Below, piece after piece: positions 4,554 through 12,153 of a DNA stretch of 13,172 bases. The notes under the pieces are model-generated. The model did no database searches and was not told where the DNA came from. It saw only the letters and a list, made by a program, of their open reading frames with translations. The stretch is from NCBI GenBank assembly GCA_043816785.1, contig JBDRHP010000064.1, positions 1 to 13,172 of the forward strand, read 5' to 3'. The translations under genes and the position numbers were made by a program. The DNA is from Candidatus Margulisiibacteriota bacterium. GTDB lineage: Bacteria > Margulisbacteria > WOR-1 > O2-12-FULL-45-9. Numbering within the stretch: position 1 is the first letter of the stretch; every line of letters starts with the position of its first letter.

Positions 4554-4562
4554 TGCTATAAT
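4554..4562 (+). promoter_or_regulatory. Extended -10 promoter for the 4673-6587 operon
   Basis: TGcTATAAT, divergent from the ade promoter. No clear -35 box. Confidence 0.55.
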
Positions 4563-4573
4563 GAATGTGTTCT

Positions 4574-4666
4574 GAAACCTGAGAAAAAACTTTCCTGCCT
4601 GCCGGCAGGCAGGTCGGTTCCTTTGATTTTGGAAACCGCGACGTTTAGTCGCAGGTTTCTGTTCAT
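4574..4666. repeat. Inverted pair of 28-bp REP-like hairpin units; the left unit is degenerate and interrupted
   Basis: The right unit GAAACCGCGACGTTTAGTCGCAGGTTTC (4632-4659) is an imperfect hairpin. The left unit (4574-4593 joined to 4614-4621) matches its reverse complement at 21/28 positions without gaps. Confidence 0.65.
4594..4613. repeat. Perfect 20-bp palindrome CCTGCCTGCCGGCAGGCAGG, copy 1
   Basis: Read directly; identical to 6058-6077. Confidence 0.97.
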
Positions 4667-4672
4667 ACAATT

Positions 4673-4912
4673 ATGAAATACTATTTTTTAGCAGCGATTT
4701 GCTCAACACTAATTACAGGCCTCGGTCAGATAGTTAAGGGAGAGATAAACAAAGGCGTTTCCCTTTTACTGCTTTTCTATTTTGTTCTGCCGGCTATAAC
4801 CTACCTCTCCCTGATGCTGCTGCCTCTCTTTTTTCCGTATATTTTGGGTTTTGTGATTATTTTTGGTATAATTCTCTGGTGCTATAATATCTGGGACGCT
4901 TTGGCAAGATAA
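4673..4912 (+). CDS. Small hypothetical membrane protein (about 2-3 TM helices)
   Basis: 79 aa, highly hydrophobic, with GLGQI...G and WCYNIWDA motifs of the kind seen in small TM2-like proteins. Its stop overlaps the next start (TAATG). Confidence 0.75.
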   Translation: MKYYFLAAICSTLITGLGQIVKGEINKGVSLLLLFYFVLPAITYLSLMLLPLFFPYILGFVIIFGIILWCYNIWDALAR

Positions 4913-6036
4913 TGAAAAAGTCATTTAGATTAGCGACCCTGTTTAATATACCCATTGAGATCAACTATACCTGGTTCATTGTTCTGGGCTTGATCATCTT
5001 TACCCTGGCGCGGGGTTATTTCCCCTACACCAACCCGGAACTGGACCCTGCTTCGCACTGGCTGATGGCCCTAATTGCCGCGCTGCTGCTTTTCGCTTCA
5101 TTGCTGGCTCATGAATTTTCCCACTCACTAGTGGCGATCCATAATAATTTGCCGATCAACGGCATTACCCTGTTCATCTTTGGCGGCGTGGCGCACATGG
5201 AAAAAGAACCCTCTTCTCCGGCGGTGGAATTTAAAATGGCTATTGCCGGCCCGTTGATGAGTTTCTTTTTGTCTCTCCTTTTCTTTGGCCTGACTCAGGT
5301 CTTTTACATCCTGCGTTTTCCAAGCTTTGTGCTTTCGATTACCAATTATCTTTTTATGCTCAACCTGGTGGTCGGTATTTTTAATTTGATCCCGGGGTTT
5401 CCCCTGGACGGCGGCCGGGTCCTGCGCGCCACGCTTTGGCATTTTTATAAAGACATCAGAAAGGCCACCGCGATCGCCAGCGGGTTTGGCAAAGGCTTTG
5501 CTTTCTTGTTGATGGGCCTGGGGTTTCTCAACCTGTTCACGGGCGCCTTGATCGCCGGTATTTGGTTTATCTTTATTGGCCTCTTTTTGCGGGAAGCAGC
5601 CGAGAGCAGCTATCGCCAGGTTGCCATAAAAAAGTTTCTAGGCAAGGTAACGATCGCAAGCTTAATCACAAAAGATGTGATCTCTGTGCCGGCAAACACT
5701 ACTCTTGACCAACTGATCGATAATTACTTTTTTAAATTTCGCCATCATTCCTTCCCTGTAGTAGAAGACGATCAGATACTTGGTTTACTTACGCTGCATC
5801 TGGTAAAAGAAGTAGACCGCAGCAAATGGGCTAAAACAACAGCCAGAGAAGCCATGCTGCCATTAAACAACAGCCTGGTGATCAGCGAATATGCGGAAGC
5901 TATTGAGGCACTGCCCAAAATGGCTAGGAACAAAGTCGGCCGGCTTTTGGTCATTGAAGGTGATAAACTGGTAGGCATCCTCTCACAAAGAGATATTATG
6001 CAGCTGTTTGAATTCAAATCTGAGATCGAGGGGTAG
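4912..6036 (+). CDS. Site-2 protease (peptidase M50) with a C-terminal CBS pair
   Basis: HEFSH zinc motif, FIFGGVA, IAGPLMS, FNLIPGFPLDGGRVLRA; CBS motifs FPVVEDDQILGLLT and LLVIEGDKLVGILSQRDI. Confidence 0.95.
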   Translation: MKKSFRLATLFNIPIEINYTWFIVLGLIIFTLARGYFPYTNPELDPASHWLMALIAALLLFASLLAHEFSHSLVAIHNNLPINGITLFIFGGVAHMEKEPSSPAVEFKMAIAGPLMSFFLSLLFFGLTQVFYILRFPSFVLSITNYLFMLNLVVGIFNLIPGFPLDGGRVLRATLWHFYKDIRKATAIASGFGKGFAFLLMGLGFLNLFTGALIAGIWFIFIGLFLREAAESSYRQVAIKKFLGKVTIASLITKDVISVPANTTLDQLIDNYFFKFRHHSFPVVEDDQILGLLTLHLVKEVDRSKWAKTTAREAMLPLNNSLVISEYAEAIEALPKMARNKVGRLLVIEGDKLVGILSQRDIMQLFEFKSEIEG

Positions 6037-6057
6037 CTATCAACGAATATGAGAACG

Positions 6058-6077
6058 CCTGCCTGCCGGCAGGCAGG
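6058..6077. repeat. Perfect 20-bp palindrome CCTGCCTGCCGGCAGGCAGG, copy 2
   Basis: Read directly; identical to 4594-4613. Confidence 0.97.
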
Positions 6078-6092
6078 AATAAACGAATTGTT

Positions 6093-6587
6093 ATGATCAT
6101 TGCGTTCAATGGTTTTCGGGATGAAGAGTACGCAGAGCCCAAAGCTGTCTTTGAACAAGCCGGCATCGAAGTCATAACTGCTTCCACCCGGGTCGGCACG
6201 GCCAAAGGAAAGTTCGGTCTGCCGGTACAAGTTGATATCGCTTTAGAAGATCTCAAAGTGACTGATTATCAGGCTGTGGTTTTTGTTGGTGGTCCTGGCA
6301 GCTATGATTATTTTGATGATCCGGCTGCACAGGGAATTGCCAATGAAACAGTCAAAGCAAATAAAATTTTAGCAGCTATCTGCGCCTCGGTTTCGATTCT
6401 GGCTAACGCAGGATTACTAAAAGGCAAAACTGCCACTTGTTTTTCCGGTGAAGGCTATAACCTCAAAGCAAAAGGTGCGAACTATACTGCCAAGGGCTTG
6501 GAAATCGACGGGAAAATCATAACCGCGGATGGGCCCGCCCATGCTAAGCAATTTGGCCAGGTCATCGCTAAACAGCTAGACCAATAG
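6093..6587 (+). CDS. DJ-1/PfpI family protein; ancestral start probably ATG 6049, now out of frame
   Basis: Motifs GFRDEE, VVFVGGPG, AAICAS (nucleophile Cys), LANAGLLKGKTAT, DGKIITADGP. Confidence 0.9.
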   Translation: MIIAFNGFRDEEYAEPKAVFEQAGIEVITASTRVGTAKGKFGLPVQVDIALEDLKVTDYQAVVFVGGPGSYDYFDDPAAQGIANETVKANKILAAICASVSILANAGLLKGKTATCFSGEGYNLKAKGANYTAKGLEIDGKIITADGPAHAKQFGQVIAKQLDQ

Positions 6588-7367: not shown

Positions 7368-7445
7368 AGGTAGCTTCTCCTTTGCGGCAAGAATACATCG
7401 TGATAATCAGCAAAAAATTTCAGCTGGATATAAGAGTGATACAAT

Positions 7446-7473
7446 TTGCACTTAACCGGAGATGTACTATAAT
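7446..7473 (+). promoter_or_regulatory. Sigma70-type promoter for polX
   Basis: TTGCAC (7446-7451), 16-nt spacer, TATAAT (7468-7473). ATG 7484 is 10 nt downstream with no SD in between. Confidence 0.6.
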
Positions 7474-7483
7474 TATTGCTGAA

Positions 7484-9208
7484 ATGGAAAACCAGGAATT
7501 TGCCAATATCTTTTGGGAAATAGCTGAGCTCTTAGAACTAAAGGAAGACAATCCTTTTAAGATCCGCGCCTATCGTAAAGCCGCGCAGATCATTGAATCC
7601 CTTTCCAAGAACATCGAAGATATCTACTCCGCTGGCAACACCAAAGCCCTGATGGCCATCCCAGGCATTGGCCAGCATATTGCAGAAAAGATCGAAGAGC
7701 AGATCAAGACCGGCAAAGTCCTGGCTCACCAAAAACTGGGCAAACAATTCCCCAAAGGCTTCCTGGAACTAGCTAAGATCCAGGGCATGGGACCCAAGAC
7801 CGCTCTCCTCCTTTATAAAAAACTAAAAATTGATTCTATTGAGAAACTGGAGCAAGCCGCCAAAAGCGGCAAATTAGCTAAGCTGCCAGGCTTTGGCGCA
7901 AAAAAAGCAGCCAACATCCTGCGCGGCATTGATCTAAAAAAGAAAAGCCACGGCCGTTTTCTGCTGGACGACGCCACGGCCCACGCAGAATTGATCGTCG
8001 AAGAACTGAAAAAGCTAAAAGAGGTCAAGAAGATCCTGCCCTGCGGCAGTTTGCGCCGCGGCAAAGAAACGATCGGCGATATTGACATATTGGTTGTCTC
8101 TGATAAACCAAAAAATATCATGGACAAATTCACCCAACTTTTTGCGGTTAAAGATGTCCTGGCGCATGGCGCGACAAAATCATCGGTTATCTTAAGAAAT
8201 GGCATGCAGGCGGACCTGCGGGTAGTGCCAGAAAAATCATTCGGGTCCGCCAGCCATTATTTTACTGGCTGCAAAGGCCACAACATCCATTTACGCCAGC
8301 TCGCCCAGAAATCCGGCTGGAAGGTCTCGGAATACGGGATTTTCAAAGGTGACAAACAAATTGGCGGAAAGACCGAAGAGGAAATGTTTCGTAAATTCGG
8401 CCTGCAATACATTCCTCCGGAACTCAGAGAAACCCGGGGCGAATTTGCAGCAGCTGCCAAGGGAAAGATCCCCAAGCTGGTCGAACAACAAGATATTAAA
8501 GGCGATCTCCATATGCACACCAAGGCCACGGATGGAGCCAACACCATTGAAGAAATGGCCCTGGCGGCCAAGAAACTTGGTTATGAATATATCGCCATAA
8601 CAGACCACACCAAGTCAACCCGAGTGGCCGGGGGACTTGACGAGAAAGAGATGATCAAACATGTGCGGGCAATCCGCGAAGCGAACAATAAGGTAAGTGG
8701 GATCAAAATACTGGCCGGAGCTGAAGTCGACATCCTGCCGGACGGCACACTAGATTATTCGGACGCCATGCTGCAGCAGTTTGACGTTGTGCTGGCAGCT
8801 ATTCACTCCAACTTCAAAATGCCCAAAAAAGAGATGACCGCACGCGTTATCAAAGCGCTGAGCAACAAATATGTTAATATTTTAGTCCATCCCACCGGCA
8901 GGCTGCTCAACGAGCGCGACCCATATGAGCTCGACATGGAAGCCGTGCTTAAAGCAGCCAGAAAAAACCACAAAATGATCGAAATTAATGCCCATCCAAA
9001 AAGATTGGACCTGACAGATGTTTATTGCCAGCGGGCCAAAGAGCTTGGCGTAAAATTGTCGATTGCCACTGACGCACATTCCATAGATCAATTAACACTA
9101 ATGAAATACGGGGTAATAACAGCCCGCCGGGGCTGGCTTGAAAAAAAGGATATAATCAACACAGAATCCGTTGCTAAGTTAATAAAACTACTCTATACTA
9201 TGCGCTAA
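7484..9208 (+). CDS. polX: DNA polymerase/3'-5' exonuclease PolX (family X polymerase + PHP domain)
   Basis: Motifs NPFKIRAYRKAA, HhH repeats (IPGIG, IQGMGPK, LPGFG), GSLRRGKETIGDIDIL with an intact DxD, ADLRVV, YFTG. PHP motifs GDLHMHT, AITDH, GAEVDI, HPTGR, EINA, TDAH. Start set to ATG 7484 (MENQEFA) from the promoter position. Confidence 0.96.
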   Translation: MENQEFANIFWEIAELLELKEDNPFKIRAYRKAAQIIESLSKNIEDIYSAGNTKALMAIPGIGQHIAEKIEEQIKTGKVLAHQKLGKQFPKGFLELAKIQGMGPKTALLLYKKLKIDSIEKLEQAAKSGKLAKLPGFGAKKAANILRGIDLKKKSHGRFLLDDATAHAELIVEELKKLKEVKKILPCGSLRRGKETIGDIDILVVSDKPKNIMDKFTQLFAVKDVLAHGATKSSVILRNGMQADLRVVPEKSFGSASHYFTGCKGHNIHLRQLAQKSGWKVSEYGIFKGDKQIGGKTEEEMFRKFGLQYIPPELRETRGEFAAAAKGKIPKLVEQQDIKGDLHMHTKATDGANTIEEMALAAKKLGYEYIAITDHTKSTRVAGGLDEKEMIKHVRAIREANNKVSGIKILAGAEVDILPDGTLDYSDAMLQQFDVVLAAIHSNFKMPKKEMTARVIKALSNKYVNILVHPTGRLLNERDPYELDMEAVLKAARKNHKMIEINAHPKRLDLTDVYCQRAKELGVKLSIATDAHSIDQLTLMKYGVITARRGWLEKKDIINTESVAKLIKLLYTMR

Positions 9209-9362: not shown

Positions 9363-9788
9363 ATGCCAATACAGATTTTCAGTGACGGCGCCGCCCGGGG
9401 AAATCCCGGTCCGGCTGGGATTGGCGTGGTCATACGCAATGACGCCAAAGTCCTGGTTGAGGTTTCAGATTTTATCGGCAAAACGACCAATAATGTTGCC
9501 GAATACCTGGCCTTTATCCGCGGACTTGAAGAAGCCCTGGATATGGGGGAAAAGAACGTTGAGGCTTTTTCTGACTCAGAGCTGCTGGTCAAACAGATAA
9601 ATGAGGAATACAGGGTTAAAAACAACGGACTTATCCCCCTCTTCCATCACGCCAAATCATTGATCAAAAAGTTTAAACACTGCCGGGTTTATCACACCCC
9701 CCGCGAAGAGAACGAACTGGCTGACAAATTAGCCAACCGCGGGATCGATGAGCAAACCACCAAAGGCTCCCCCCTATTCTCCAAATAA
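9363..9788 (+). CDS. rnhA: Ribonuclease HI family protein (short archaeal/actinobacterial-like type)
   Basis: Motifs FSDGAARGNPGPAGIG, TNNVAEY, SDSELLVKQ, PREENELADKLAN; all four acidic catalytic residues are present. Confidence 0.92.
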   Translation: MPIQIFSDGAARGNPGPAGIGVVIRNDAKVLVEVSDFIGKTTNNVAEYLAFIRGLEEALDMGEKNVEAFSDSELLVKQINEEYRVKNNGLIPLFHHAKSLIKKFKHCRVYHTPREENELADKLANRGIDEQTTKGSPLFSK

Positions 9789-9803: not shown

Positions 9804-9822
9804 TATGCTAGAACCTTGAAAT

Positions 9823-10188
9823 GGGCAGGCCAGATGATCGCCCCGAGCGAGGCCGCAAGGCCGAGTCGAGGGGAGGAAAGTCCGGACTCCACAGAGCAGC
9901 GTGCTGGATAACGTCCAGTCAGGATAATAACCTGAAGGAAAGTGCAACAGAAAATATACGGCCGAACTGATCCCTAAAGGATCGGTGGCAAAGGTGAAAA
10001 CGGGAGGTAAGAGCTCCCGACGGTCTGACCGGAGACGGTCGCGTTGTAAACCCCACGTGGAGCAAGACCAAAAAGGGAGATGGATAGCTCGTCCGTTATG
10101 ATCCCGAGTAGGTCGCAATGAGGTCTCAAGCAATTGGGGCCCCAGACAGATGATCGTCCACGACAGAATCCGGCTTATCGGCCTGCCC
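9823..10188 (+). ncRNA. rnpB: RNase P RNA, bacterial type A
   Basis: Universal motifs GAGGAAAGTCCGGACTC, GGAAAGTGCAACAGAAAA, AAACCCCAC..GGAGCAAG, ACAGAATCCGGCTTA. Terminal helix GGGCAGGCC (9823-9831) / GGCCTGCCC (10180-10188), extendable by TTGAAA/TTTCAA to about 9816-10196. Confidence 0.97.
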
Positions 10189-10208
10189 TGTTTCAAACCA
10201 CAAGCACA

Positions 10209-11757: not shown

Positions 11758-12153
11758 CTACAAGTTTTGCAACGCCAGCACGTTACCCTGCAGCTGATAA
11801 AGTGACTTCAGATATGAGTCATTATTTGAATTTAGTGAAGAATTAATATCAAGCCCGCTGTTAAGCAAAGCCTCATCTATTGAACCGTCCGGGGATATCT
11901 GTTCAATGCCCAAACCTGAGGCCAGCTGATCAGTTGTGTTATGTGAAACAAAAGGGTCAAAAAAGTTCTCTTCATCATCGTCATTATCGTCTGAGCTTGA
12001 GATAAGATCGTCCAGCATCTGGTTAAAATTTTGCTGCAGCACCAACTTGGCTGCTTCAGGATTCTCTGGGCTCGTGCCCTTAAGCGACTGCAAACCCTGG
12101 ATCTGAGCACCAAGTGAATACACATTGTTGATCCCGTCCATTAAGCTAGACAT
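11758..12153 (-). CDS. Hypothetical acidic protein
   Basis: 131-aa ORF with SD-like AGGGGGAG upstream, starting 17 nt after the permease stop; acidic tract DDNDDDEE. No family recognised. Confidence 0.7.
   Translation of the reverse strand: MSSLMDGINNVYSLGAQIQGLQSLKGTSPENPEAAKLVLQQNFNQMLDDLISSSDDNDDDEENFFDPFVSHNTTDQLASGLGIEQISPDGSIDEALLNSGLDINSSLNSNNDSYLKSLYQLQGNVLALQNL

Follow-up and report, generated by a model that had tools for sequence, protein, structure and literature searches.

The stretch of DNA analysed here (13,172 nt from a Candidatus Margulisiibacteriota genome; hereafter the window) carries two copies of a 20 bp palindrome, with an M50 peptidase-CBS gene (4912..6036, + strand) between them. 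Copy 1 (4594..4613) splits a degenerate 28 bp bulged hairpin repeat that occupies 4574..4621 and has no assigned strand, and an intact partner of this host repeat follows at 4632..4659 in inverted orientation, completing a doublet. A TATAAT box lies upstream of copy 1 (4557-4562, + strand) and suggests that the copy and its host doublet are located in the leader of a plus-strand operon. Copy 2 (6058..6077) interrupts a repeat built of AACGAAT units (6036..6089, + strand) at a point that follows codon 3 in the ancestral frame of a DJ-1/PfpI gene (6049..6587, + strand), and the ancestral start codon, ATG 6049, is out of frame through this copy.

The M50 peptidase-CBS gene is syntenic with the DJ-1/PfpI gene in most relatives and is an ordinary neighbour, not cargo. 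The same ordinary status applies to the PolX-PHP gene (7382-9208), the RNase H gene (9363-9788) and the RNase P RNA identified with Rfam (9822-10193), all on the plus strand, although the PolX protein is also a candidate for the gap-filling step inferred below. Two further ORFs in the window, at 4673-4912 and 11758-12153 (79 and 131 aa), have no Pfam match. At gathering score RNase P is the sole Rfam match in the window, and the 20-mer matches no RNA family.

The two copies, noted as identical in a preliminary description of this DNA, are exact at 4594-4613 and 6058-6077 and self-reverse-complementary, and the 20-mer gave 0 matches in 200 shuffles of the window. A search of the genome (1.53 Mb, 47% GC, 86.75% complete) returned 28 exact matches, which correspond to 26 distinct sites after two contig-end overlaps are merged; the chance that just the two copies in the window existed, which would have counted against a mobile element, is thereby removed. 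Sixteen further matches lie within three edits, giving 44 fuzzy matches in total. When the perfect palindromes of the genome are ranked, the 14 nt core of the 20-mer is by far the commonest, with 33 occurrences against 2 for the runner-up. The likely source sample has contigs that span site 1 in full; at site 2 its contigs cover each junction separately, and no single contig spans both.

To examine how these copies arose, each of the 44 fuzzy matches was removed and the joined flanks were searched across the genome. Convincing empty paralogues, aligned across the junction with nothing gained or lost, were found for 12 of the 44 sites. Both sites in the window are among them, with 50 empty paralogues in the same genome for site 1 and 4 for site 2. 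The joined flanks of the other 32 sites gave no match, weak matches alone, or the site's own duplicate contig end. The empty paralogues exhibit neither duplication nor deletion of the target, in agreement with what had been described for the two sites in the window, and no target-site duplication of the kind that marks MITEs is present at the 12 sites. The individual reconstructions were likewise reproduced. Removal of copy 1 yields a gap-free match (21 of 28 positions) to the reverse complement of 4632-4659, and removal of copy 2 restores three AACGAAT units and an in-frame start, the open frame from ATG 6049 reading MRTNKRIVMIIAF.

The same conclusion is reached with a larger set of 179 sites (187 sites less 8 that are nested). 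Flanking direct repeats are absent from 106 of these against 110.9 expected, and their length spectrum follows background with one exception, five 7-base matches versus 1.2 expected, which we attribute to hosts that are tandem repeats. Contigs from five sequencing runs, which drop rare variants, contained no empty allele, excised form, circle or informative joint.

The host repeat of copy 1 is itself abundant, with 87 genome copies within 5 mismatches, often arranged as inverted pairs. Members of this 28 bp family flank two short IS200-like Y1 genes (on contigs C10 and C60). A second element, of 42 nt, is nested in the same host repeat at 19 sites (e.g. C10:13983), at one fixed position in 18 of the 19, and a sequence related to it lies upstream of a YhbQ-type GIY-YIG gene on contig C77.

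Empty orthologous sites, whose existence the preliminary description had left to be established, were found at site 2. Two relatives (G008 and G012) retain the M50-DJ-1 gene order and carry the same repeat in its empty form, reading MSTNKRIL and MATNKRIA, respectively, and a third (G006) retains an AACGAAT-type repeat that is also empty. The exact 20-mer is absent from the DJ-1/PfpI locus in all 29 relatives examined, and hence is not fixed there. Because relatives are empty at this site and their frame is intact, copy 2 must have frameshifted the DJ-1/PfpI gene after codon 3. The ORF that remains (6093-6587, beginning with ATG 6093) is without 5-11 N-terminal residues that are present in the 29 relatives. 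Related hairpin inserts occur at other positions upstream of the same DJ-1/PfpI gene in two relatives (L187 and L200).

The 20-mer had been described as having no loop and no tag. This proved incorrect once its relatives were compared, since they share a 4 nt tag (CCTG, TTTA, CTTG and variants), a covarying 6 bp stem and a loop of 3-5 nt. Perfect stems of the form CCYRCC give 79 matches in the genome, with both strands of each palindrome counted, versus 2, 5 and 2 in Markov controls. Behind related tags, 11 different perfectly paired stems account for 46 of 59 matches, some of them by chance, and the loop, when the tag-first strand is read, is usually of the form G...A (81 of 119 non-palindromic matches). 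Wobble pairs, tallied as a guide to the functional strand, are evenly divided (G-T 4 versus A-C 4). The 20-mer is the member of this family whose tag makes both strands identical. With DNA folding parameters it can form an 8 bp hairpin of -8.0 kcal/mol, compared with -6.9 and -6.0 kcal/mol for its two possible 6 bp hairpins.

Both junctions in the window do fall inside a CGAA tetramer, as had been observed, but CGAA is not the target rule. It is found at 2 of the 26 sites in the genome, which are just the two in the window (0.5 expected), and at 8 of 161 sites elsewhere (6.0 expected). The target rule is instead a purine 5′ of the tag, which holds for 29 of 30 oriented 21-mers and for 61 of 69 non-palindromic CCTG-tagged copies. 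Applied to the palindrome, this rule predicts that pyrimidine-purine junctions should be few, and they occur at 13 of 179 sites against 40.7 expected and at 0 of 24 in the window's genome. Thus 13 of the 179 sites break the rule; both sites in the window obey it, and it places the tag-first reading on the minus strand for copy 1 and on the plus strand for copy 2. A preference for hairpin-forming targets was considered and rejected, because emptied sites fold no better than flanking controls (165 versus 330 windows, p = 0.22).

Copies of different length are distributed differently with respect to genes. Exact 20-mers lie within frames that are open for 50 codons on both sides at 4 of 26 sites, compared with 295 of 400 random windows. 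In contrast, 7 of the 9 variants of 21 nt in the genome lie in frame within long ORFs, and 19 of 30 21-mers from the class, a set that includes three from the window's genome, are inside ORFs. Five genes carry exactly 21 extra bases (7 residues) relative to all orthologues covering the insert, namely those for MutS (4 orthologues), GlmS (5), RarA (5), ApbE (5) and a ferredoxin-ETF subunit (3). The inserts in the ApbE and ETF genes are the 20-mer plus one terminal base, and in the other genes the extra base is located in the loop or the tag. A further in-gene copy, on contig C26, has one partial orthologue among 5 genomes. These data show selection on length: 20 nt copies persist outside genes, and copies with a net length of 21 nt persist in frame within them.

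Of 65 genomes of the class, with 0-32 copies each, 46 contain the exact 20-mer; it is present in 0 of 81 genomes from the phylum's other classes. Species genomes were also scanned, which uncovered at least 122 stretches containing it, and the 80 titles listed include Patescibacteria, Bacteroidota, Omnitrophota, Planctomycetota, Thermodesulfovibrionales, delta-proteobacteria and Chloroflexi; its carriers in culture are at least four Bacteroidota isolates, with Winogradskyella echinorum and Flagellimonas yonaguniensis as examples of cultured carriers. Forty viral stretches (L001-L040) contain the 20-mer, with copies between structural genes and within short tandem repeats. One of them (L037) carries a tRNA-fragment GIY-YIG cassette, of the type described below, with an exact 20-mer. 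The identity of the sequence letter for letter across phyla, coupled with its patchy occurrence among kin, points to horizontal spread. The original view of a discrete, non-autonomous 20 bp element that inserts precisely and without duplication is supported by the 26 sites, the empty paralogues and orthologues and the cultured isolates, and we consider it highly probable that the element is mobile.

It had also been suggested that HUH/RAYT or other nuclease genes might accompany the repeat. This expectation fails for Y1 genes (1 of 34) and holds for a single-domain GIY-YIG nuclease gene linked to tRNAs (45 of 66). The genome contains six small stand-alone GIY-YIG genes and five Y1 genes. Four of the GIY-YIG genes reside in cassettes, wherein a 5′ tRNA copy interrupted by hairpins is followed by the GIY-YIG gene (~80 aa) and then by an intact tRNA. 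In the cassette on contig C24, the tRNA-Leu piece carries three clean inserts, which are the 20-mer and two of its TTTA-tagged kin; the GIY-YIG gene of C24 occupies 5442-5675 of that contig on the minus strand. Two of the 26 exact 20-mers in the genome are at cassettes, as are all four perfect-stem TTTA-tagged copies.

In a survey of the class, 80 of 95 loci were parsed and provided 83 small GIY-YIG genes. A family hairpin is located no more than 250 nt away from 10 of 49 genes in the tRNA-front clade (for its tRNA-Leu type, 7 of 7) and from 0 of 34 genes of the YhbQ or Ssn type. Among the 15 loci missed initially is a tRNA-Met cassette, from a genome with 20 copies, that bears the exact 20-mer. 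Nearly every cassette has some hairpin, the type of which varies by subclade. Metagenomic relatives were retrieved by protein alone using an eight-protein profile, and 66 of these are distinct. A tRNA is located downstream in 44 of the 66, and the 200 nt upstream contain a family hairpin in 45 and the exact 20-mer in 16, in a collection with many close kin, three loci that repeat class genomes and at least one match that is a terminator. Most of these upstream hairpins occupy the D arm within the spare piece of tRNA. As controls for adjacency, the family element was found at 1 of 34 Y1 genes and 0 of 30 four-helix-bundle genes, for which start positions are approximate.

At the level of whole genomes, the 20-mer is present in all 17 with a profile score of at least 102 bits, of which 10 had no part in building the profile; this cut-off was picked after seeing the data, and kin among the genomes are not independent. 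Matches to the profile at E <= 1e-15 also occur in 14 of the 19 class genomes that contain no element and in 14 of the 81 from other classes. The element-bearing genomes G036 (5 copies), G040 and G143 give no profile match, and G140 (15 copies) gives a weak match alone. The presence of any GIY-YIG gene was uninformative as a discriminator (41 of 41 genomes). The core GIY-YIG residues are invariant in our alignment (A1). Relatives of the partner in the PDB are UPF0213 proteins and SLX1, and no NCBIfam model scores above its cut-off. Viral GIY-YIG relatives are distant, and a tRNA or hairpin accompanies 0 of 30. When ORFs around loci L001-L162 were clustered, the sole GIY-YIG cluster comprised 4 loci, indicating that most dispersed copies have no adjoining nuclease.

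Several other features of the cassettes were observed. Their tRNA targets include Leu, Ser, Tyr, Gln, Glu, Pro, Ala, Asp, Met, Lys, Asn and others (L224-L293, L424-L532), and each subclade has a characteristic hairpin position in addition to its hairpin type. The upstream tRNA piece is sometimes unlike the intact tRNA, as if the cassette supplied its own 5′ replacement. At one locus (L101:130-2232) a 701-codon ORF that resembles a type I restriction specificity subunit contains a GIY-YIG domain with the 20-mer in front of it. Other small nuclease or transposase genes in the genome have repeat types of their own, with an SRM at the Ssn-like gene on contig C33 and GTAG-type REPs at the Y1 genes on contigs C99, C16 and C49.

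The analysis of these cassettes suggests that the 20-mer is mobilised in trans by the small tRNA-linked GIY-YIG nuclease whose cassettes hold the same hairpin, a proposal to which we assign a probability of roughly 0.55. The nuclease would bind the tag and hairpin in single-stranded or extruded DNA and would cut at the edge of the hairpin, by analogy with the action of SsnA beside NTS. A host ligase or repair polymerase could then join the freed piece of 19-21 nt into a single-strand nick that follows a purine, and replication would fix the insert. Joining into a single-strand nick would explain both the absent duplication and the one-base length variants. A perfect palindrome would present an identical signal on each strand and is able to fold into a blunt 8 bp hairpin, properties that would explain why the palindrome, unlike its asymmetric TTTA kin, spread beyond the cassettes. 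The confinement of perfect-stem TTTA copies to cassettes and the dispersal of the palindrome suggest that symmetry freed the latter. To our knowledge, GIY-YIG enzymes act solely as hydrolytic nucleases, and the joining step would therefore be without known precedent. Biochemical data for the relevant type of cut come from SsnA, a GIY-YIG protein of 94 aa, which is described in the accessible portion of the Ssn paper as binding a single-stranded DNA hairpin and introducing a cut a few nucleotides upstream, with cleavage dependent on the bases immediately upstream of the stem (PMC11893778).

We advance a broader form of the proposal tentatively, at somewhat below even odds. Here a selfish, tRNA-invading GIY-YIG cassette would cut out its 20 nt cognate hairpin, and host ligation would place this piece into new nicks, amounting to transposition without a transposase. 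The palindrome would then be an escaped parasite of the cassette that crossed many phyla unchanged while writing seven-residue inserts into proteins.

Adjacency to GIY-YIG genes could also result from insertion by an element with another mover into spare tRNA pieces that act as neutral landing sites. The element might be moved by host end-joining or a gap-filling polymerase that captures a short oligonucleotide, or by reverse transcription of a small RNA, with the cassettes serving as favoured landing sites and as horizontal vehicles. This explanation accommodates the location of most copies far from cassettes, in other small repeats, as well as the high-copy genomes in which distant GIY-YIG matches alone are found, and the one-base length variants, seen in the loop, the tag and the ends, suggest that copying is prone to error. 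We regard it as unlikely, however, given that the element is not enriched at other repeat-flanked small genes (1 of 34, 0 of 30 and 0 of 34). Furthermore, hairpins of like type group together on the GIY-YIG tree (17 changes versus 28.7 for shuffled labels; labels are loose and kin are not independent; trees were made by a quick method and with FastTree). Reverse transcription in particular is not favoured, because an RVT_1 match is present in just 2 and absent in 3 of the 5 high-copy genomes, all of them incomplete (84-89% for the three without a match).

The preliminary description had favoured an HUH (Y1) enzyme, in which case a transposase of the RAYT or IS200 type would move the element by single-strand peel-and-paste. 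HUH chemistry acts on a tag and hairpin of this anatomy, leaves no duplication and supplies the joining step, so the structure of the element and its clean junctions fit well. The genome has five Y1 genes, four element copies lie in a host repeat that flanks Y1 genes, a variant is found upstream of the Y1 gene on contig C60 and an exact copy upstream of a Y1 gene in G011. Moreover, Y1 genes were found in 23 of 31 element-bearing genomes versus 4 of 10 element-free genomes, all of which are incomplete. Against this, a family element is present in the flanks of 1 of 34 Y1 loci, and Y1 was not found in 8 of the 31 element-bearing genomes, among them G023, G026 and G015 (84-90% complete; 16, 20 and 9 copies, respectively); conversely, G004 has no copy despite its 8 Y1 genes. 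In addition, the Y1 genes of the window's genome adjoin different repeats, and the element carries no GTAG tag. A Y1 enzyme as the general mover is therefore improbable, even more so than the polymerase or reverse transcription routes; since copy 1 is nested in a repeat found on the flanks of two Y1 genes, such an enzyme may take some nested copies along with it.

Passive multiplication of a few old insertions by recombination or by movement of the host repeat, with the 20-mer itself now immobile, would account for copies that share both host repeat and position (three in the site 1 host family and two in another). This is very improbable, because flanks are unrelated at most sites, single-copy housekeeping genes contain copies that are missing from those genes in relatives, different variants, oriented oppositely, occupy one and the same host position, and 28 of the 44 fuzzy matches are exact. 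An assembly or library artefact, to which a metagenome assembly with no contig bridging site 2 might seem open, can be dismissed for the element as a whole given its occurrence in cultured isolates, its restriction to one class of the phylum, its covarying stems and the dependence of its length on reading frame.

A defined 20 nt substrate, a one-base target rule and a candidate enzyme of 80 residues make the question of how such small repeats spread directly testable, and the same 20-mer is available in cultured Bacteroidota. An enzyme that cuts as predicted would represent a new specificity class among very small nucleases for single-stranded DNA. Were the transposase-free route to be correct, CGTC REPs and SRMs, both of which are without a transposase, would be candidates for the same route. 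The element stands at the lower size limit of mobile elements, with empty sites that document its movement. It further gives rise to 7-residue inserts and to spurious PACRQAG and LPAGRQ peptides in the annotated proteins of uncultured bacteria.

A literature search covering open full texts recovered no paper that describes the 20-mer or its peptides, and none with a GIY-YIG hairpin cassette linked to a tRNA. The closest parallel is the Ssn/SRM system, in which a small stand-alone GIY-YIG gene is likewise accompanied by a short, oriented hairpin whose 5′ side bears a conserved stretch (Chenal et al., 2025; PMC11893778). There the authors liken the nuclease-hairpin pair to REP/Y1 systems and suggest a mobile origin, mobility being put forward as a hypothesis (PMC11893778). 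Like Ssn (cd10448), the partner here is a single-domain GIY-YIG protein of about 80-100 aa. It probably belongs to a GIY-YIG clade other than that of Ssn, separate from the SRM-flanked C33 protein in a quick tree built on few columns, and it shares 35% identity over 66 aa with the Ssn-like protein of the genome itself. Of the 26 element sites, 0 fit the degenerate SRM pattern as published, although the pattern does match beside the C33 GIY-YIG gene of the same genome. The cassettes described here involve tRNAs, a word absent from the accessible text of the Ssn paper, and empty sites here reveal precise insertion of single hairpins, which that text does not report for SRMs (PMC11893778).

The element also resembles REPs, which the accessible parts of two reports describe as palindromes of 20-40 bp with a 4 nt tag at one end that are mostly extragenic, with some located within DNA repair genes (PMC3733652, PMC3116915). 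The palindromic form, the 4 nt tag at one end and the mostly extragenic location are common to both, as are some copies inside DNA repair genes. Unlike the GTAG and CGTC REPs as described there, the present family has CCTG, TTTA and CTTG tags, occurs as singlets instead of doublets and includes a 20-mer that is letter-identical across many phyla. It also differs from REP/RAYT systems in the scarcity of a flanking RAYT or Y1 gene, with 1 of 34 Y1 loci and one further copy, in G011, outside that set. No IS that shares the ends of the element was seen among the Y1 loci. A dedicated transposase is not an invariable feature of REPs, as the accessible text on CGTC REPs reports none (Di Nocera et al., 2013; PMC3733652).

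Judged by description alone, the element is like the SDRs of the Nostocaceae in being a very short mobile repeat without an enzyme of its own. SDRs are reportedly 21-27 nt in size, and we know of no GIY-YIG partner for them. They are stated to be limited to the Nostocaceae in the accessible part of one account (PMC5861425). RPEs are ~150 bp, and the defining features of MITEs are terminal inverted repeats and target duplications, according to a further report (PMC10969869). Like RPEs as characterised there, the element is a palindromic insert found in frame in unrelated housekeeping genes (five proteins, each with 7 additional residues). Unlike RPEs and MITEs, it is 20-21 bp in length, adds 7 residues and causes no duplication.

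The element thus works like a REP or an SRM yet fails membership of both, as judged from its tag, the absence of a RAYT and the 0 of 26 sites that match the SRM pattern. A tagged hairpin paired with a small nuclease is a known kind of arrangement, and there is a fair chance that the elements described here represent a new route of transposition within it. A 20-mer spread in this way would be one of the smallest mobile elements.
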